From contig CANQUA010000008.1 in NCBI GenBank assembly GCA_947626915.1, positions 135 to 64,134 of the forward strand: a DNA stretch of 64,000 nucleotides. The letters run 5' to 3'. A program made the translations under genes and the position numbers. Shown here in pieces: positions 4,764-23,000 of this stretch. Origin of the DNA: an uncultured Lachnospiraceae bacterium (GTDB taxonomy: Bacteria > Bacillota > Clostridia > Lachnospirales > Lachnospiraceae). The notes under the pieces were generated by a model. It had not been told where the DNA came from and ran no database searches. It saw only the letters and a program-made list of their open reading frames with translations. Positions within the stretch are counted from its first letter, which is position 1. Each line of letters opens with the position of its first letter.

Positions 4764-4793
4764 TCATAGCGGACCTGCCGCCGCTCATATAGT
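4764..4793 (+). promoter_or_regulatory. sigmaE-like (mother-cell) promoter ahead of the small ORF and LSR1
   Basis: TCATAGC-15 bp-CATATAGT; ATA to CATA spacing 17 bp. Confidence 0.55.
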
Positions 4794-6605: not shown

Positions 6606-6636
6606 CCGCAGATCGTTCTTACAGGATCGCCCCATC

Positions 6637-6858
6637 TGCCGCCAGGTCCTCAAACAGATCGGTGATCGGATCACCCTTGGACTGAAACTCGCAGGCGCTG
6701 AAGGGCACGCCGCCCGCCGCCTGGGGCCAGATCCCGGCCGTATGGTCGATATAATAGGGACCCAGACCGGAGGCGGCGATCTGCTCCGCGCTCAGGCCTT
6801 TGGTCAGCTGATGGATGATCGATGCAATGATCTCCATGTGAGCCAGTTCTTCCGTACC
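6637..6858 (-). pseudogene. cotJC: cotJC piece B (middle 74 codons of the manganese-catalase-family spore coat protein)
   Basis: GTEELAHMEIIASIIHQLTKG...YYIDHTAGIWPQAAGGVPFSACEFQSKGDPITDLFEDLAA. Confidence 0.92.
6849..6858. repeat. att core, left junction of the LSR2 element
   Basis: CTTCCGTACC, identical to 12777-12786; followed by arm GAAGCACCGAAAATGCTCCT. Confidence 0.9.
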
Positions 6859-7002
6859 CACAGAAGCACCGAAAATGCTCCTCGGCTCTGCCGGGCAAAG
6901 CGGGACCAGACGTGTGATCTCCTACTAAAATCCCAAGAAAAATCCCTGTTCTTTTACCGGAATGTCCGTTATACTATAAGTAACTTCTGAGGAGGACCGT
7001 TT

Positions 7003-7665
7003 ATGTACCGAAAGATACTGATCATCGACGACGATATCTATATTGGGAACCTGATGGACGATGCTTTGAGCAGGGAGGGCTATCAGATCTTCCACGCGTA
7101 TTCCGGCACGGAGGCGCTGCTGTTTTTGGCGCAGGCCAGGCCGGACCTGATCCTGCTCGACCTGATGCTGCCGGGACTTTCCGGAGAAGAGCTGCTGCCG
7201 CAGATCAAGGGGATCCCCGTCATTGTCGTAAGCGCGAAAGTGGACGTGGACGACAAAGTCAACCTGCTGCTCGGCGGCGCGGCGGACTACATCACCAAAC
7301 CATTTCAGGTCAAAGAGCTTCTGGCCAGGGTCGCCGTGCAGTTCCGCAGGCTCGATCCGGCCTCTCCCGCCCCGGTCCTGGAGTACGGCGGCCTCCGGCT
7401 CGATCCCGTTACCCATATCGTAACCGCCGGCCAAAAGGAACTGAAACCTACCAGAACGGAATACGCGATCCTGAAAATACTCATGCAGAACCCCTCGCAG
7501 ATCGCAACCAAATCGCTGCTTTTAGACCGCATAAGCGCAGATACGCCGGACTGCACAGAAAACTCTCTTAAAATGCACATCAGCAATCTCCGGAAAAAGC
7601 TGCGTGAAGCGGACGGCCAGGATCACATCGAAGCGGTCTGGGGGATCGGGTTCCGGCTGCGCTGA
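7003..7665 (+). CDS. OmpR-family response regulator
   Basis: ILIIDDD, DLILLDLMLP, DYITKPF, AVWGIGFR; GAGGAGG RBS. Confidence 0.95.
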   Translation: MYRKILIIDDDIYIGNLMDDALSREGYQIFHAYSGTEALLFLAQARPDLILLDLMLPGLSGEELLPQIKGIPVIVVSAKVDVDDKVNLLLGGAADYITKPFQVKELLARVAVQFRRLDPASPAPVLEYGGLRLDPVTHIVTAGQKELKPTRTEYAILKILMQNPSQIATKSLLLDRISADTPDCTENSLKMHISNLRKKLREADGQDHIEAVWGIGFRLR

Positions 7666-7671
7666 AAAAAT

Positions 7672-7714
7672 CTTTACGGTTTCTTTACCGGTTCCTTTAC
7701 CGCTTTCTTTACGG
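7672..7714 (+). promoter_or_regulatory. Four CTTTAC(G/C)G direct repeats, probable response-regulator binding site
   Basis: Copies at 7672, 7683, 7695 and 7707, ahead of the ABC ATPase gene. Confidence 0.6.
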
Positions 7715-7758
7715 TTCCATGATACGATACCGGCATCAAATCAAGGAGGTATGCCTTT

Positions 7759-8673
7759 ATGGACTATGTTCTCAGAACAAACGCTTTGACCAAAAGCTAT
7801 AAAGGGGCCAAAGCGCTGGCCGGTCTCACGATGAATGTGCCCAAGGGAGCGATCTACGGGTTCGTGGGGAAAAACGGCGCCGGCAAGACGACGCTGATCC
7901 GCCTGATCTGCGGCCTGCAGGAGCCGGATTCGGGAGACTACACGCTGTACGGCAGAAAAAACGCGGAAAAGGACATTACAAGCTCCCGCCGCCGGATGGG
8001 CGCGGTCGTGGAAACGCCCGCCATTTATCTGGATCTGACGGCGGAGGAAAATCTCAGGCAGCAGTACCGGATCCTGGGACTGCCCTCGTTTGACGGGCTT
8101 TCCGACATTTTAAAACTGGTGGGGCTGGATCAAACCGGGAAAAAGAAAGCGAAAAACTTTTCCCTGGGGATGCGGCAGCGGCTCGGGATCGCCGTCGCTC
8201 TCGCCGGGGATCCGGACTTTCTGGTTCTGGACGAACCCGCCAACGGACTCGACCCCCAGGGGATCATCGAGATCCGGGAACTGATCCTGGAGCTGAACCG
8301 CAGGCAGCAGATCACAGTCCTGATCTCCAGCCATATCCTGGACGAACTGTCAAAGTTCGCGACCCATTACGGTTTCATCGATGGCGGGCGCATGGTAAAA
8401 GAAATCAGCGCCGAAGAACTGGAGGCCGCCTGCCGGAAATGCGTCCGCATGGAGGTCAGCAGCACGAAAGCCCTCGCCCGCGTCCTCGACAAAATGAAGA
8501 TCGACTATACGATCCTGAGCGGCACGACCGCCGACGTCTACGCGAAAGTAAACATCTCCCGCCTGAGCAGCGCGCTTGCAGGGGAGAACTGCGAACTGAT
8601 CTCGGCGCAGGAACGGGATGAAAGTCTGGAAAGCTATTATGTGAGTCTGGTGGGAGGCGGAACGAATGAATAA
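7759..8673 (+). CDS. ABC transporter ATPase (BcrA/lantibiotic-immunity-like)
   Basis: GKNGAGKT, FSLGMRQR, LVLDEPANGLD, ISSH. Confidence 0.93.
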   Translation: MDYVLRTNALTKSYKGAKALAGLTMNVPKGAIYGFVGKNGAGKTTLIRLICGLQEPDSGDYTLYGRKNAEKDITSSRRRMGAVVETPAIYLDLTAEENLRQQYRILGLPSFDGLSDILKLVGLDQTGKKKAKNFSLGMRQRLGIAVALAGDPDFLVLDEPANGLDPQGIIEIRELILELNRRQQITVLISSHILDELSKFATHYGFIDGGRMVKEISAEELEAACRKCVRMEVSSTKALARVLDKMKIDYTILSGTTADVYAKVNISRLSSALAGENCELISAQERDESLESYYVSLVGGGTNE

Positions 8674-9496
8674 ACTGCTGCGGTCAAATTTTTCAAGGCT
8701 CTGGAGAGACAAACTGTTCTGGCTCTGCATGGGAGCCATGCTCATCTATGCGGTCCTGTTCATGTTAAACGGATGCAGGCAGGCGGCCGCGGATATGTCG
8801 GAATATTCGTATTCTATCGATAACTATTATTTCCATTTCGCGTTATCGATCGGACTCTTCTGCTCGGTGTGCAGCAGTATGTTTTTCGGGACGGAATACA
8901 GCGACGGAACGATCCGGAATAAGATCATCGTCGGACACACAAGGACCGACATCTATCTGGCGAGCCTGATCACCACCTTTGCGGCGACGCTGCTGATCAT
9001 GTCGGTGTGGCTCGTCGGAGCGCTCGTCGCCGTCCCTGCGCTTGGCTTCTGGAAAATAGGCGCTTTGCGGCTGCTGAGCTTCCTGCTGATCGCCGTTATG
9101 TTCGTCCTCGCGCTTTCCGCGATCTGTACGGTGATCAATTTGCTGTCGTCCGGCAAGGCCGATGCGTTTCTCATCTCGATCCTGCTGTTCATTGGCCTGC
9201 TGCTTTTGGCAAGCATGATCTACAACGGCCTCAGCGAGCCGGAAATGGTAAGCGGCGTTCAGATCACCCAGAATGGGCTCGATCTAACGGAACCTGCCCC
9301 GAATCCGAACTATGTCACCGGGATGAAGCGGGAGATCTATGATTTCATCGTCGATTTCCTGCCGACGGGACAGGGACTGCGGATGTGGCAGCTGGAGATC
9401 GCGCATCCGGTCCGGATGATCCTCTCCTCGCTGTTTATCACGGCCGTCACGACGGCGGGCGGGATGTTGGCGTTTAAGAGGAAGAATATCCAGTGA
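8666..9496 (+). CDS. ABC-2 type permease
   Basis: Six hydrophobic segments, EYSDGTIRNKIIVG motif; overlaps the ATPase gene. Confidence 0.88.
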   Translation: MNKLLRSNFSRLWRDKLFWLCMGAMLIYAVLFMLNGCRQAAADMSEYSYSIDNYYFHFALSIGLFCSVCSSMFFGTEYSDGTIRNKIIVGHTRTDIYLASLITTFAATLLIMSVWLVGALVAVPALGFWKIGALRLLSFLLIAVMFVLALSAICTVINLLSSGKADAFLISILLFIGLLLLASMIYNGLSEPEMVSGVQITQNGLDLTEPAPNPNYVTGMKREIYDFIVDFLPTGQGLRMWQLEIAHPVRMILSSLFITAVTTAGGMLAFKRKNIQ

Positions 9497-9705
9497 CAGG
9501 AATTCAGTCCGGGGGATGGTTTTCGTTATTCGGCGGATTCTTATTATCGAACAAATGATACTCGTTGCCTGATGGTTTTCGCCGCTTGATGGACGATTCC
9601 ATCATCGGATGGATTTTTGCTGCCTGATAGACGATGCCCGTCACCTGATGGATTTTCGTTACCTGACGCGTAATTCTCATCGTACGATCATAAGGGGGAT
9701 TATTT

Positions 9706-10599
9706 ATGGAAATGTGGTTATGGGCACTGAGCGGTATCATGGCAGCCGCCATTCTTTTACTGCTTCTCAAAATACATGCCCTGCAAACGGCCGCAAAGGA
9801 AATCGAGAGCGCCTTTGCCGACAGGCTCATGACTGATACCAACACGCTGATCGATCTCTCTTCCGCGGACCGGCACATGCGCCGCCTGGCAAACGGCATC
9901 AACGTCCAGCTGAGAAAGCTGCGGGAGGAACGGCGCCGTTTCGAGCAGGGAGATCTGGAACTCAAAAACGCGGTCACAAACATTTCCCACGATCTGCGTA
10001 CCCCTTTGACGGCCATCTGCGGCTACCTGGATCTGCTGGAAGAGGAGGAAACGTCCGAAAAAGCGGCCTATTATCTGCAGATCATCCGGGACCGGGCAGA
10101 GCTTTTAACGCAGCTGACGGAAGAATTGTTCCGATATTCGGTCATCCTTTCCGCCGAAAGCAGCGGGAACTGGGAGCCTGTGAATGTGGGCGGTGTGCTG
10201 GAAGAAAGCATCGCGTCGTTCTACACGGCGCTAAAAGAGCGGGACATTTCGCCAACGATCCGGATCCCGGAAAAGAAAATCGTCCGGACGCTGGACCGCT
10301 CCGCTCTGGCCCGCGTATTCTCCAATCTGCTGAACAACGCAATCAAGTACAGCGACGGCGATCTGGAGATCATCCTATCGGAAACAGGCGCGGTGATCTT
10401 CACGAACACGGCGTCCGGATTAAACGAAGTACAGGTAGGAAGACTGTTCGACCGCTTTTATACGGTCGAAGCCGCCAGGAAATCGACGGGCCTGGGCCTG
10501 GCGATCGCCAGAACGCTGATCGAGCAGATGAACGGGACCATATCCGCCGAATACCAAAATAACCGGCTGAACATTACCATCGCGCTGCCGGACGAGTAA
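9706..10599 (+). CDS. Sensor histidine kinase
   Basis: NISHDLRTPL, NLLNNAIKY, STGLGL. Confidence 0.93.
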   Translation: MEMWLWALSGIMAAAILLLLLKIHALQTAAKEIESAFADRLMTDTNTLIDLSSADRHMRRLANGINVQLRKLREERRRFEQGDLELKNAVTNISHDLRTPLTAICGYLDLLEEEETSEKAAYYLQIIRDRAELLTQLTEELFRYSVILSAESSGNWEPVNVGGVLEESIASFYTALKERDISPTIRIPEKKIVRTLDRSALARVFSNLLNNAIKYSDGDLEIILSETGAVIFTNTASGLNEVQVGRLFDRFYTVEAARKSTGLGLAIARTLIEQMNGTISAEYQNNRLNITIALPDE

Positions 10600-10601
10600 G
10601 G

Positions 10602-10644
10602 GACAACGCCTGCGGGAGTTTGGCAGCTCCTCGCGGGCGTTGTC
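10602..10644 (+). terminator. Stem-loop downstream of the kinase
   Basis: GACAACGCC...GGCGTTGTC stem; weak T tail. Confidence 0.5.
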
Positions 10645-10707
10645 TTATGGGGGCGGACGCCGCGTCTACCTGCGCCCCGTATCGGCCCACCAAAAACGTT
10701 TTCCTCG

Positions 10708-10737
10708 TTATATGGGACAAACACCGGCTCATATATT
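10708..10737 (+). promoter_or_regulatory. sigmaE/sigmaK-like promoter ahead of the small ORF and LSR2
   Basis: TTATATG...CATATATT; ATA to CATA spacing 17 bp. Confidence 0.45.
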
Positions 10738-10812
10738 AGAATACGCCGTCGATCTGCTGTACGGTTCTACACAGCAGATACCGGCTGACTCTTTTGGAAA
10801 ACGAGGGAAACA

Positions 10813-11049
10813 TTGGCTGTGAAAACCAGGGAATTCGTTTATACGGGCGGCCCCGTTCCCGATCTGGACGGACCGGAATACGCGGCGTTCCTTTTGAATC
10901 TGCAAAAAGGGATCCTCCTTTCTCTGGAGCAGAGGAACCTATTGACCGCTTCGCAGCGGGAGCGCTGTCTGGCCATGCTCAAGGATCCGTGCATACAAAA
11001 GGCCAAAGCCACGTCCGCTGGGCCCGCCGGGAAAGGGGGTTCCGCATGA
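10813..11049 (+). CDS. 78-aa helical protein; candidate directionality factor for LSR2
   Basis: GAGGG RBS; stop overlaps the LSR2 ATG (ATGA at 11046-11049); function inferred from position. Confidence 0.65.
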   Translation: MAVKTREFVYTGGPVPDLDGPEYAAFLLNLQKGILLSLEQRNLLTASQRERCLAMLKDPCIQKAKATSAGPAGKGGSA

Positions 11050-12758
11050 ACCGGTATGAGCGCCTGAACCAGAAACAAAAGGCTGTGACCACGAAGAAAA
11101 AAGTTGCGGCGTACTGCCGGGTCTCCACCGACGGCGAGGATCAGGCCAACTCGTTTGAAAGCCAAAAACGGTATTTCCGGCAGTATATCGAGCGCAATCC
11201 CGACTGGGAGCTTTACGAAATATTTGCCGACGAGGGTATCTCCGGCACAAACACCCGGAAGCGAAACGCATTTAACCGCATGATCGCCTGCGCCAAAAAC
11301 GGCGATTTCGATCTGATCATCACCAAAGAGATCTCCCGCTTCGCCAGAAACACACTGGACAGTATCTACTATACCCGGGACCTGAAAAAACATGGAATCG
11401 GCGTGATCTTTCTGAACGACAACATCCATACACTGGACAGCGACGCGGAGCTGCGCCTCGCCATCCTGTCTTCCATCGCGCAGGAGGAAAGCCGAAAGAC
11501 CTCGGAGCGTGTGAAATGGGGACAGAAACGCCGGATGGAACAGGGCGTCGTGTTCGGCAGGGACCTGCTCGGCTACGACGTCCGCGGCGGCAAATTGTAT
11601 ATCAATGAAGAGGGGGCAAAGATCGTCCGCCTTATCTTTCATAAATTTGTGGACGAGAGAAAAGGTACCCACGTCATCGCCCGGGAGCTTCGGGAGGAGG
11701 GGATCCCGCCCTGCCGCGGAAAGGAATGGCAGCATACCGTCATTCTCCGCATACTCCGCAACGAAAAATACTGCGGCGACCTGGTACAGAAAAAGACCTA
11801 TACGCCGGACTTTTTGTCCCACGAAAAGAAATACAACCGCGGACAGGAGGAATTTGTCATCCTGAAAGACCACCATGAGCCGATCGTTTCCCGCGAGCTG
11901 TTCGACGAGGCCAACCGGATCCTGGACGAGCGCTCCCGCACGGCTGCGGGAAAAGCAAGGTACTGCCATCCGGCCGCGCCAAATACAGAGGACGAACGTT
12001 CCTGCACAGTTGCAGGAAAGATCAGGTACTCCAGCCGCCACACGTTCTCCGGGAAGATCCGGTGCGGACAATGCGGCCACAGCTATGTGGCACGATATAA
12101 GACCCGCAGGGACGGGAGCCGGTACAGGGCGTGGCGCTGTCTGGAAGCCGTCCGAAACGGCCCTCCTCGTTCGGATTCGGCAGGCAGTCCGGCCGGCTGC
12201 GCATCTCCCGGTATCCGCAATGAGGATGCCGTCCATCTCATGTGCCTCGTCACAAAGGCGCTGAGATTCGACCGCTCAAAGTTCCAGGACCGTCTGCTCT
12301 CTGTGATCCGAACCGCAATCGCCACGGATGCCGGGGGCGCGGATACCGAAAAGCGAAAGGCGCGGATCCAGGCCATAGAAAACAAACGGGCCCGGCTGAT
12401 CGAACTCTATCTGGCCGGCGATGTGACAAAAGAGGAATTTACAGCCGCCAGCGCAAAATGCGACAGCGAGATCGCCGGGCTGCAGCCGGACACAGCAAAG
12501 ATGGAGCGGCAGCCGGCGCAGCCCCCGCGGAAGCAGCAGGAGCTGATCCGCGCGATGGACGGCGCGGTCTCTGAGCTTTTAAACGGTGTGGAATACGAGG
12601 ATACGTTTTACCGGCAGATCCTGGATCAGATGGTGGTGATAGACCGCGACCATATAGACGTGTATCTGCATTTTCTTCCGGTCAAATGGAGCTACACGGC
12701 CGCGGGATGCGGAAATGCTCCGCGCCGGAGACCCGCTCAACCGAAAAAGAGCCCCTGA
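11046..12758 (+). CDS. Large serine recombinase LSR2 (570 aa; start reassigned from 10794)
   Basis: AAYCRVST, FADEGISG, KEISRFAR, HHEPIVS, CGQCG zinc ribbon, coiled coil; GGGGG RBS before ATG 11046. Confidence 0.94.
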   Translation: MNRYERLNQKQKAVTTKKKVAAYCRVSTDGEDQANSFESQKRYFRQYIERNPDWELYEIFADEGISGTNTRKRNAFNRMIACAKNGDFDLIITKEISRFARNTLDSIYYTRDLKKHGIGVIFLNDNIHTLDSDAELRLAILSSIAQEESRKTSERVKWGQKRRMEQGVVFGRDLLGYDVRGGKLYINEEGAKIVRLIFHKFVDERKGTHVIARELREEGIPPCRGKEWQHTVILRILRNEKYCGDLVQKKTYTPDFLSHEKKYNRGQEEFVILKDHHEPIVSRELFDEANRILDERSRTAAGKARYCHPAAPNTEDERSCTVAGKIRYSSRHTFSGKIRCGQCGHSYVARYKTRRDGSRYRAWRCLEAVRNGPPRSDSAGSPAGCASPGIRNEDAVHLMCLVTKALRFDRSKFQDRLLSVIRTAIATDAGGADTEKRKARIQAIENKRARLIELYLAGDVTKEEFTAASAKCDSEIAGLQPDTAKMERQPAQPPRKQQELIRAMDGAVSELLNGVEYEDTFYRQILDQMVVIDRDHIDVYLHFLPVKWSYTAAGCGNAPRRRPAQPKKSP

Positions 12759-12776
12759 CAAGGAGCATTTCAGGGG

Positions 12777-12786
12777 CTTCCGTACC
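12777..12786. repeat. att core, right junction of the LSR2 element
   Basis: CTTCCGTACC preceded by arm AGGAGCATTTCAGGGGCTTC. Confidence 0.9.
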
Positions 12787-12969
12787 TACATCGGTCAGTA
12801 CCGCCTTTCCGATGTCATAGGGCATCGCGTAACGCTGGGACAGATAGCGCATGGAAGCCGCGCTTTCCCCGTCCGGACCGCCGTACTGGCTGGCAATAAA
12901 CTGGGCCAGCTGCGGATTGGGGTTCGTAATCTTTACCGGGTACTGCAGGCGTTTTTCATATCTCCACAT
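12778..12969 (-). pseudogene. cotJC: cotJC piece A (codons 1-64); reads into att sequence and stops at 12682
   Basis: MWRYEKRLQYPVKI...QYGGPDGESAASMRYLSQRY...LTDVGTE; directly follows cotJB. Confidence 0.93.
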
Positions 12970-13432: not shown

Positions 13433-13474
13433 GAAAACGACGACTCCTCTCTGACTGAATGTTTTGATATTACT

Positions 13475-13505
13475 AATTTATGAGGGAAGCGCCGTTTCGT
13501 GTATT
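13475..13505 (-). promoter_or_regulatory. sigmaE/sigmaK-like promoter of the cotJ operon
   Basis: Minus strand GAATACAC...CATAAATT. Confidence 0.5.
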
Positions 13506-20087: not shown

Positions 20088-23000
20088 TCATCCGCGCCTC
20101 TGCACGCCGAGCGTAACCTCTTCGCCGTTAATATTCCATTCTTTGACATAACCTTCCGTCCGGCCGGACACGATTCCCTCCGCCAGGACCTCTGACCGGA
20201 TCTCTTCGCCATGCTCCGCGAAAATCCGGCTGATCTTCTCATTTTCCTGCTCATAGACCAGAATATGGTCCATGACCTCAAATCCGGCCTCCTTGCGCAT
20301 GGTCTGCAGCTTGCTGACCAGTTCGCGGACAAAGCCTTCCTCGATCAGCTCCGGCGTCAGATTGGCGTCCAGCACCACGGTTACCACGCTGTCCGCCTCG
20401 GACACGTAGCCGGGCTTCTGGGACATATCGATCAGCAGGTCCTCCTCGGTCAGCACAACCGGGCCGCTGCCGAAATCAAAGGTCAGCGCGCCGGAAGCCT
20501 TCAGCGTATCCATCGCCTCATTCCCGTCCGCTTCCGCCAGCGCCTTGCGGATATTTCCCAGCTGTTTCCCGTATTTGGGGCCGACCGTCCTGAGCTGCGG
20601 CTTGAAGGTATAGGACGTAAACTCCCTCACGTCTTCCGTAAACACGGCCTTTTTCACATTCAGTTCATCCTCAATGATCTCCAGATAGAACTGGGAAAGA
20701 GCGGCCGGGGCCTTGATGAACATCTGCCTTAAGGGCTGGCGGTTCTTCAGATTGGCCGTATTTCTGGCCGCGCGGCCCATTACCACCACATGGAGCACCT
20801 CGTCCATGTCGGCTTCCAGCTGCGGGTCGTCGAAGACCTCCTCCGCCGTCGGGAAGTCGCACAGATGGATGCTCTCCGGGGCGGTTTTGTCCACGCTGCA
20901 GACCAGGTTCCGGTAGATCGCCTCGGTCATAAAGGGGATCATGGGAGCGGCGGCCTTGCAGACCGTCACCAGCGCCGTGTAAAGGGTCATGTAAGCGTTC
21001 ACCTTATCCTGCTCCATGCCCTTGGCCCAGAAACGTTCCCGGCTGCGGCGGACGTACCAGTTGCTTAAGTCATCCACAAAATCCTCCAGCATGGCGGCGG
21101 CTTCGGGGACCCGGTACTGATCCAGATTCTCATCCACGCCCCTGACCATCGTATTCATCTTGGCCAGGATCCACCGGTCCATCACTGAGAGCTTCTCATA
21201 CTCCAGCGTATGCTCCAGCGGGTCAAACTCATCAATATTCGCGTACAGCACGAAAAATGCGTAAGTATTCCAAAGGGTCCCCATGAATTTGCGCTGGCCC
21301 TCCTGGACGATCTTGCCGGAGAATCGCTTGGGCAGCCAGGGAGCCCCGCTGGTGTAGAAATACCACCGGATTGCATCCGCGCCATAGGTTTCCAGCGCCT
21401 CAAAGGGATCCACGGCATTGCCCTTGGACTTGCTCATCTTCTGTCCGTTCTCGTCCTGGACATGGCCCAGCACGATGACGTTCTCATAGGGCGATTTGTT
21501 AAACAGCAGCGTAGACTCCGCCATCAGGGAGTGGAACCACCCTCTGGTCTGGTCCACGGCCTCAGAGATAAACTGAGCCGGGAACTGCTGCTCGAACAGA
21601 TCCTGATTTTCAAAAGGATAATGATGCTGGGCAAACGGCATGGCCCCGGAGTCGAACCAGCAGTCGATGACCTCGGGAACCCGGTGCATCGTCTTCCCGC
21701 ACTTCGGGCAGGGGAACGTCACCTCGTCGATATAAGGACGGTGCAGCTCCACTTTCGCCGCCTGCAGGTCGCCGCTCAGATCCGCCAGCTCCTGACGGCT
21801 GCCGACGCAGATCTGATTGCCGCACTCACATTCCCAGATGTTTAAGGGCGTGCCCCAGTAACGGTTCCGGGAGATGGCCCAGTCCTGAATATTTTCCAGC
21901 CAGTTGCCGAAACGTCCCTTGCCGATGGAATCGGGGATCCAGTTGACCGTGTTGTTGTTGCGGATCAGATCGTCCCGGACCGCGGTTTCCTTGATATACC
22001 AGGACTCGCGGGCGTAATAGATCAGAGGCGTGTCGCATCTCCAGCAGTGGGGATAGCTGTGCTCGAATTTGGGCGCGTCAAAAAGCAGGCCCTTCGCGTC
22101 CAGATCCCGCAGGACCATGGGGTCGGCTTTCTTTACGAACACGCCCGCGTAAGGGGTCTCCGCCGTCATATCGCCCTTCGCGTCCACCAGCTGGACGAAC
22201 GGCAGGTCATAGACGCGGCCCACCTTGGCGTCGTCCTCGCCGAAGGCCGGCGCGATATGGACCACGCCGGTGCCGTCGGTCAGCGTGACGTAGGAATCAC
22301 AGACCACATAATAGGCCTTCTTGCCCTGTTTTCTGCAAAGCTCCACCGCGCAGTCAAAAAGCGGCTCATATTCTTTATATTCCAGATCTTTTCCCGTATA
22401 TGTCTCCAGCACCTCATAGGCCGGCTTTCCGTTTTCCTTGTCCGCCAGCTTCCCAAGGACCGTATCCAGAAGCGCCTGGGCCATATAGTAGGTATAACCG
22501 TCCCCCGCTTTTACTTTCGCGTAGGTCTCTGCGGGGTTTACACAGAGCGCCACGTTGCTGGGCAGGGTCCATGGCGTAGTAGTCCACGCCAGGATGTAGG
22601 CGTCCTCGCCTTTCACTTTAAAGCGGGCGATGGCGGAGCGCTCCCTGATGTCCTTATAGCCCTGGGCCACCTCCGCCGTCGAAAGCGGGGTCCCGCAGCG
22701 CGGGCAGTACGGCACGATCTTGAAGCCTTTATAGAGAAGTCCCTTGTCCCAGATGGTCTTTAAGGCCCACCACTCGGACTCGATATAATCGTCGTGATAG
22801 GTCACGTAAGGATGGTCCATGTCCGCCCAGAAACCCACGGTGCCGGAAAAATCTTCCCACATGCCTTTGTATTTCCAGACGCTTTCCTTGCATTTGTCAA
22901 TGAACGGTTCCAGGCCGTATTCCTCGATCTGGTCCTTGCCGTTTAAACCCAGCAGTTTCTCCACCTCGATCTCCACCGGGAGTCCGTGGGTGTCCCATCC

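Follow-up and report, generated by a model that had tools for sequence, protein, structure and literature searches.

The window analysed here is a stretch of 64,000 nt from an uncultured Lachnospiraceae bacterium (GCA_947626915.1, contig CANQUA010000008.1, positions 135-64,134, forward strand), and the genome searched is a 3.18-Mb, 99%-complete assembly. The spore-coat gene cotJC is interrupted in the window by a 5.9-kb non-phage element, element 2, at 6859-12786. The predicted att cores are an exact 10-bp direct repeat, CTTCCGTACC; the left copy (6849-6858) forms the junction with the middle piece of cotJC and the right copy (12777-12786) the junction with the 5' piece. Both pieces were located on the minus strand by tblastn, the 5' piece (aa 1-64, with a match to Pfam Mn_catalase) at 12778-12969 and the middle piece (about aa 62-135) at 6634-6858, and the 5' piece lies downstream of cotJA and cotJB, which were identified by Pfam (CotJA, CotJB) on the same strand. 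Three groups of genes occupy the plus strand of the element: a cargo of response regulator, ABC ATPase, ABC-2 permease and histidine kinase (7003-10599; Pfam), a small open reading frame (ORF) at 10819-11049 that is a candidate recombination directionality factor (RDF), and LSR2 (11046-12758), a large serine recombinase (LSR) of 570 aa with Resolvase, Recombinase and Zn_ribbon_recom domains (Pfam). The small ORF lies inside the att-bounded 5,928 bp, as does LSR2, and the cargo, a two-component system and an ABC transporter, is absent from other family members.

In silico removal of the 5,928 bp between the cores joins ...LTDVGTE to ELAHMEII... in frame; the rejoined cotJC reads ...LTDVGTEELAHMEII..., and its product is continuous through DVGTEELAH. 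The predicted junctions are ...GTAGGTACGGAAGAACTGGC... for the rejoined gene and ...CAGGGGCTTCCGTACCCACAGAAG... for the excised circle. Scans of metagenome contigs for exact circle junctions of this element and of the commoner L019-type returned none, a result that we grade as uninformative. A second element, which carries LSR1, cuts cotJC again at about codon 135, and the third piece of the split gene (aa 126-189) is found on contig C29 (35718-35909). The assembly also contains an intact cotJC paralogue of 189 aa (C11:32315-32884), so selection to rebuild the split copy is possibly not strong and the split copy may be dispensable. Upstream of cotJA, at 13474-13500 on the minus strand, AC-N16-CATAAATTA matches the sigmaK-type consensus; if genuine, it would place transcription of the cotJ operon later than sigmaE-timed excision.

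The preliminary description of this DNA had noted that the stop of the small ORF overlaps the start of LSR2, and the TGA at 11047-11049 and the ATG at 11046 do share the sequence ATGA (11046-11049). It had also given the ORF 78 aa; the gene is real, but its length is most likely 76 aa, from GTG 10819, the longer form requiring a start at TTG 10813. We regard GTG 10819 as the likeliest start because it matches the position of the start codon in the family, directly 5' of K-x-R-E-F, and is retained in the closest relative (L133, 88% identity), in which TTG 10813 is lost. The Shine-Dalgarno (SD) sequence of the small ORF, GAGGG (10803-10807), is homologous to the family's GAGGGAGGTG. LSR2 has its SD, GGAAAGGGGG (11030-11039), inside the 3' end of the small ORF, the tail of which passes through it, and this SD is homologous to the GGGAAAGGAG that precedes the LSR in relatives. 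A 654-aa frame opening at TTG 10794 had been called over-extended, correctly: dozens of LSR2 homologues start to align by tblastn at residue 1, MNRYERL..., of the protein that opens at 11046, and the sequence 5' of this ATG shows purifying selection in the frame of the small ORF.

The model of an LSR2 homologue has its best match in the SPbeta integrase (9dxd, E 7.5e-22), with the phiC31 and Bxb1 integrases also matching, and contains long helices at 498-600, after the zinc ribbon. LSR1 and LSR2 are 29% identical over their first ~350 residues. The LSRs of five other loci (L001, L019, L022, L069 and L077) lack about 70-78 residues, equivalent to positions 429-506 of LSR2, where the coiled-coil region starts; the small ORF beside these shortened LSRs is intact.

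The small ORF is a conserved gene under purifying selection. Over 50 ungapped core codons the median pairwise dN/dS is 0.125 at a dS of about 1. Beyond 34 close homologues, a profile search of 1.84 billion representatives yields a family of 252 clusters at 50% identity, nearly all of 55-90 aa, with the (nearly) invariant pattern K-x-R-E-F-x-Y-x-G ... F-L-x-N-x-Q-x-x-I-L-x-S-L-E-K-R-N-L-L-T-x-x-Q-R-E-R-C; F26, Q31, S37, L38, R41, L44, T45, Q48 and C52 of the protein are invariant. No match was obtained in Pfam, NCBIfam or, by tblastn, phage genomes, and none that was informative in PHROGs (best E 0.0096, in 1-2 of 45 members). The profile retrieved no RDF from all PDB chains at E<=10, the lone match being an unrelated kinase (E 1.2), and Foldseek with the predicted structure found nothing in PDB or BFVD at E<=0.001. 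The AF2 model of the protein (pLDDT 79) consists of an extended N-terminal segment (1-19), a helical hairpin (helices at 20-40 and 46-57) and a disordered tail, with no helix-turn-helix or other DNA-binding fold. The absence of any likeness to the 52-aa ORF of element 1, remarked on earlier, holds to the extent that BLASTP gives no alignment at E<=100.

With the small protein as query, species-level genomes yielded 77 loci, most of them from Lachnospiraceae, in which an LSR2 homologue (58-74% identity) follows the ORF and, contig permitting, the cotJC 5' piece comes directly after the LSR. A class-wide search with a profile of the most divergent members located the family in 25 of 399 genomes (20 genera); of the 20 distant loci that were fetched, 18 have an LSR of 45-57% identity directly downstream and 14 a cotJC fragment alongside. 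In the reverse test, LSR2 alone was the query and found 419 relatives in species-level genomes, the best 80 of which were kept. Within these best 80 of 419, the small ORF is just upstream in 72 of the 74 loci with enough upstream DNA, and the cotJC 5' piece lies within 500 nt in 63 of the 75 with enough downstream DNA. L001-type loci, seemingly without the 5' piece, were rejected as exceptions: there it sits 11.6 kb off, with the cargo between the LSR and the att site. The pairing persists to about 45% LSR identity, and small-ORF distances track LSR distances with a Mantel rho of 0.79, compared with 0.43 for those of the host cotJC. Occurrence is patchy, with 3 of 25 genomes of the genus carrying the family and the other 22 lacking it. 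Beyond the LSR, the small ORF is the sole gene common to elements whose cargo is unrelated, namely a Phd/ParE pair only in the 3.3-kb L059 element, a membrane protein and two other unrelated ORFs in the L049 element (about 5.3 kb), and an ABC transporter with a glycyl-radical enzyme in the 11.6-kb L001/L019 element. Judged from this comparative evidence, the small ORF and an LSR2-type recombinase are a fixed two-gene module.

Additional recombinases occur at cotJC in relatives. L030 (14500-16281) and L038 (15108-16900) have a second LSR, 44-46% identical to LSR2, beside the cotJC 5' piece and downstream of the LSR2-type module. It is preceded by its own, different small ORF, the motif of which, LKRGIY-EL--R--LSD-QL (L-x-R-x-x-L-S-x-x-Q), recalls the helix SLEKRNLLT--Q of the family. 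A third kind of LSR, 26-32% identical to LSR2 and on the opposite strand, splits the cotJC 5' piece at codons about 11-31 in L023, L025, L062 and L079; given its presence in several species, cotJC has at least three distinct LSR insertion sites. In two distant loci (L117:6249-8218 and L121:4048-6007) the 3' end of the LSR abuts the 3' part of cotJC (aa about 58-189) on the same strand, and the element appears to have a different orientation or arrangement.

The region spanning the promoter motif of the small ORF reads cgTTATATGGGACAAACACCGGCTCATATATTAG. A motif at 10730 with ATA 17 bp upstream had been reported, and the spacing is exactly 17 nt, from the ATA at 10710-10712, within the -35 region GTTATAT (10707-10713), to the -10 box CATATATT at 10730-10737 (family consensus CATACATT), a sigmaE-type arrangement. 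The spacer contains the block GGGACAA (10714-10720), GGTACAA in most relatives, which has high information content in the promoter alignment. Searched on both strands with the strict pattern ATA-N16-18-CATA[CT]ANT, the 64-kb window contains two occurrences only, at 10710 and at 4766, the latter preceding the 52-aa ORF in element 1. Of 79 related loci, 70 have the strict motif in the 120 nt upstream of the small ORF, the background rate being 0.0047 per 120 nt. Relatives have a fixed 24-30 nt between the end of the -10 box and the K codon; in the window this distance is 84 nt. Conservation in 32 non-redundant promoters peaks at GTTATA, at the GGTACAA block and at TCATACATT, and drops over the hexamer needed for a sigmaA reading. 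The more divergent LSR-seeded set (best 80 of 419 relatives) keeps the strict motif in 29 of 65 distinct upstream regions, and the remainder mostly have one-mismatch variants at the same spacing, such as AATACATT. Genome-wide the strict motif occurs 41 times, in 8 cases with an SD and an ORF after it; these include the classical sigmaE genes spoIVA (TIGR02836, 657.7 bits) and yabP (TIGR02892, 86.3 bits) as well as both small ORFs that adjoin LSR1 and LSR2. The sigE gene is present in the genome. A strict sigmaE-type motif with SD is also found on the minus strand of contig C6 (motif at 20701), before an 83-aa ORF (MERRHRRTRKEKLEDELKK...) that has no family match.

A clear spoIIID gene was not found in the assembly, which yields only a weak 25-residue match (25.7 bits), a fragment within a 34-aa open frame at C37:1498-1572; spoIIID may here be absent, very divergent or interrupted. 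The GG(G/T)ACAA block was considered as a SpoIIID box and set aside, since it is a resemblance only and the assembly has just that weak match. A sigmaK reading of the promoter was likewise rejected, as no AC stands at the proper spacing and the family -10 box lacks TA.

A 58-nt hairpin-containing repeat (10739-10796) is inserted in the 5'UTR and is absent from other family members except L133. It has a folding energy of -24.6 kcal/mol (z -2.3) and holds a 9-bp perfect hairpin, ATCTGCTGT...ACAGCAGAT; a second hairpin pairs with the SD. Further copies lie at C77:2401-2455, at C32:5203-5251 (two in tandem) and at L133:1-150 (at least two in tandem). Because copies are dispersed through the genome, we do not regard the hairpin as a specific regulator, and a dedicated riboregulator was rejected in favour of a dispersed intergenic genomic repeat. 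Placed between the -10 box and the SD, and combined with the weaker SD, the insertion could impair expression here.

The translational coupling proposed earlier agrees with the ATGA overlap in the window, but it does not describe the family, of which it is a local, derived minority state. Overlap occurs at about 9 loci only, and most relatives have a gap of 33-376 nt between the small ORF and the LSR. Of 38 distinct gaps, 28 contain a terminator-like hairpin, typically at their start, with a U-run after it (-14.5 kcal/mol, z -4.7), and 19 have a sigmaA-like promoter, TCGACA-N17-TATACT (10/12), before the LSR. The majority layout runs from the sigmaE-type promoter through the small ORF, the terminator-like hairpin and the sigmaA-like promoter to the LSR. 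The junction of the two genes in the window looks as if terminator and promoter had been deleted, and LSR2 would here depend on the same sigmaE-type promoter as the small ORF, a dependence comparable to that of spoIVCA in B. subtilis. Such an arrangement fits an element that still excises and for which integration is no longer needed. It is unclear how a copy with this shared transcript could integrate, which counts against the reading of the ORF that we favour below.

Several known systems share parts of this organisation. In skinCd of C. difficile, an LSR element that likewise splits a sporulation gene of the mother cell, all cells transcribe the LSR CD1231 from a sigmaA promoter, and the RDF CD1234 (72 aa), produced in the mother cell only from a sigmaE/SpoIIID-dependent promoter, triggers excision (PMC5025042). 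The likeness extends to a small, acidic-to-neutral protein of about 70 aa without database family (the RDF there, the candidate RDF here), to a sigmaE-type promoter and short 5'UTR of its gene, and to an LSR with a sigmaA promoter, sigmaA-like in the majority layout of the present family. The target, however, is sigK there and cotJC here, the small gene is here directly upstream of the LSR, and LSR2 of the window lacks its own promoter and overlaps the small ORF. SprA/SprB of SPbeta in B. subtilis resembles the LSR2-type module in that it provides the best structural match of the LSR fold (9dxd). Excision timing in SPbeta is set by expression of the RDF, not of the LSR (PMC4191935, PMC5499854, PMC11722253), as would be the case here on the model given below. 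Its RDF is small, with helices and a strand, and binds DBD2 and the coiled-coil hinge (PMC11722253). In contrast, SPbeta is a functional prophage in spsM and the cotJC elements have no phage genes (no phage homologue); the PDB-wide profile search with the small protein, moreover, retrieved no RDF at E<=10. The gin element of Bacillus cereus, with GirC/GirX in gerE, is another non-phage gene-intervening element; its excision needs the LSR and a very small unannotated protein conserved among the elements, although GirX has 42 aa and lies elsewhere in the element, and the target gene and host class are different (PMC5595907). A skin-like element of Laceyella sacchari is likewise a recombinase element that targets cotJC, but it is mentioned in passing, with no RDF described, and its host belongs to the Bacilli (bioRxiv 10.1101/2022.02.25.481979).

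Known RDFs have no common sequence or fold; they are small proteins that bind DBD2 close to the coiled-coil base and redirect the coiled coil (PMC12286644, PMC11722253). We consider it probable that the ORF at 10819-11049 is the cognate RDF of LSR2 and that the pair is the recombination module of the element. Sequence comparison leads us to infer that the small protein binds LSR2 and acts as its RDF, that it is orthogonal to LSR1, and that its expression depends on sigmaE and is confined to the mother cell. That this is a second, unrelated directionality-factor candidate with mother-cell timing had been put forward in the preliminary description, and comparative genomics supports it through the 72/74 pairing and the conserved sigmaE-type motif. 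On this model, LSR2 alone would carry out integration only (attP x attB). During sporulation, sigmaE-RNA polymerase in the mother cell would transcribe the small gene from ATA-N17-CATATATT, and the small protein would bind LSR2 at the junction of zinc-ribbon domain and coiled coil. The coiled coil would thereby be redirected to attL x attR recombination at the CTTCCGTACC cores, so that the element is excised and the cotJC codons ...GTE|ELAH... are rejoined; the forespore chromosome would retain the element. In most relatives, where the LSR appears to have its own sigmaA-like promoter, the small gene would be the sole developmental switch. In the window, where intergenic terminator and promoter seem to have been lost, LSR2 would be read from the small-ORF transcript.

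A structural hint on docking comes from a natural read-through fusion of the homologous pair in L006, which we folded in AF2 as a single chain with the stop read as Gly and a 41-codon in-frame spacer (alignment of 19 paired and 71 unpaired rows; output pLDDT and DSSP). In this fusion model, the LSR part of which resembles the SPbeta integrase (9dxd, E 7.5e-22), the conserved F-V-Y segment is a three-residue beta-strand (N-terminal pLDDT about 70; pLDDT/DSSP only). The strand has no partner inside the small protein, and the segment is unstructured in the monomer model. Its formation in the fusion may point to docking on the LSR.

Four other explanations of the ORF were weighed against an RDF with mother-cell timing. 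That it is an accidental open frame, or a mere leader of the LSR2 mRNA, would suit its shortness, its non-ATG start and its lack of a database family. This explanation has practically no probability left, since the conservation pattern already refutes it: dN/dS of 0.125 at saturated synonymous divergence, 252 clusters at 50% identity, and the invariant residues F26, Q31, S37, L38, R41, L44, T45, Q48 and C52. It is also highly improbable that the product is a cargo protein that serves sporulation or the host, has no part in recombination and only happens to neighbour the LSR. A sporulation-type promoter would equally suit a small mother-cell protein, but the ORF co-varies with the LSR and not with the host gene, is kept even in the 3.3-kb element, is missing in 22 of 25 congeners, and accompanies 72 of the 74 LSR-seeded loci among the best 80 of 419.

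Two objections carry more weight, and we consider each of them unlikely. The protein could be an accessory other than an RDF, such as a regulator that acts on transcription or translation of the LSR, or a cofactor that bends DNA or binds att; the strict LSR linkage implies co-function without saying which, and the protein is unlike any solved RDF. To our knowledge, however, no LSR excises without an RDF, and the elements have no further gene in common. The model also has no helix-turn-helix or other DNA-binding fold, and in its regulation the module has the same layout as a proven RDF/LSR pair. With a similarly small probability, the protein would be an RDF that is not specific to the mother cell, its promoter being used by sigmaA or by a sigma factor of the forespore that has a similar -10 box, and the timing of excision being set by something else. 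This would accord with a weak sigmaA-like match in the window, GGGACA-N17-TAGAAT (9/12, sigma-70-type), which overlaps the sigmaE motif and counts against our preferred reading, with the presence of the strict motif in only 29 of 65 LSR-seeded regions (best 80 of 419) and the many variants such as AATACATT, and with the lack of a clear spoIIID gene in the assembly. Against it, information in the 32 promoters is highest on GTTATA and CATACATT and low on the sigmaA -10, the strict motif marks spoIVA and yabP in the same genome, and the -10 box does not fit what we take to be the sigmaG and sigmaK consensus. The cognate RDF of LSR2, expressed in the mother cell, remains the reading that we prefer.

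More tentatively, the observations can be combined into a single proposal, which we hold to be possible and rather doubtful as a whole: a new structural class of RDF, a two-pair AND gate on one gene, and a domesticated switch that serves excision only. Docking could proceed by beta-strand addition of the N-terminal K-x-R-E-F-x-Y, together with the SLEKRNLLTxxQ helix. The two orthogonal LSR/RDF pairs would form a developmental AND gate on cotJC, and loss of the LSR promoter would leave a mother-cell-only, excision-only copy for which integration is no longer possible.

The principle is not new, being already known from skinCd, SPbeta and gin. What is new is the small-protein family, previously unnamed and widespread, which on sequence grounds very probably provides the RDF of LSR2-type cotJC elements. 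For large serine integrases to serve as reversible tools of genome engineering, RDFs are the bottleneck, as they are not recognisable by sequence. Since the RDF candidate is syntenic with the LSR in this family, genome sequences directly yield candidate cognate pairs together with their short att sites, on a scale of 252 clusters (50% identity) and, among species-level genomes, 419 LSR relatives. For the organisms themselves, the predicted function would add cotJC, in gut Lachnospiraceae and Oscillospiraceae, to the genes that are reconstituted in connection with sporulation, and the locus described here would be a natural case in which two unrelated LSR/RDF pairs must both fire to rebuild one gene.
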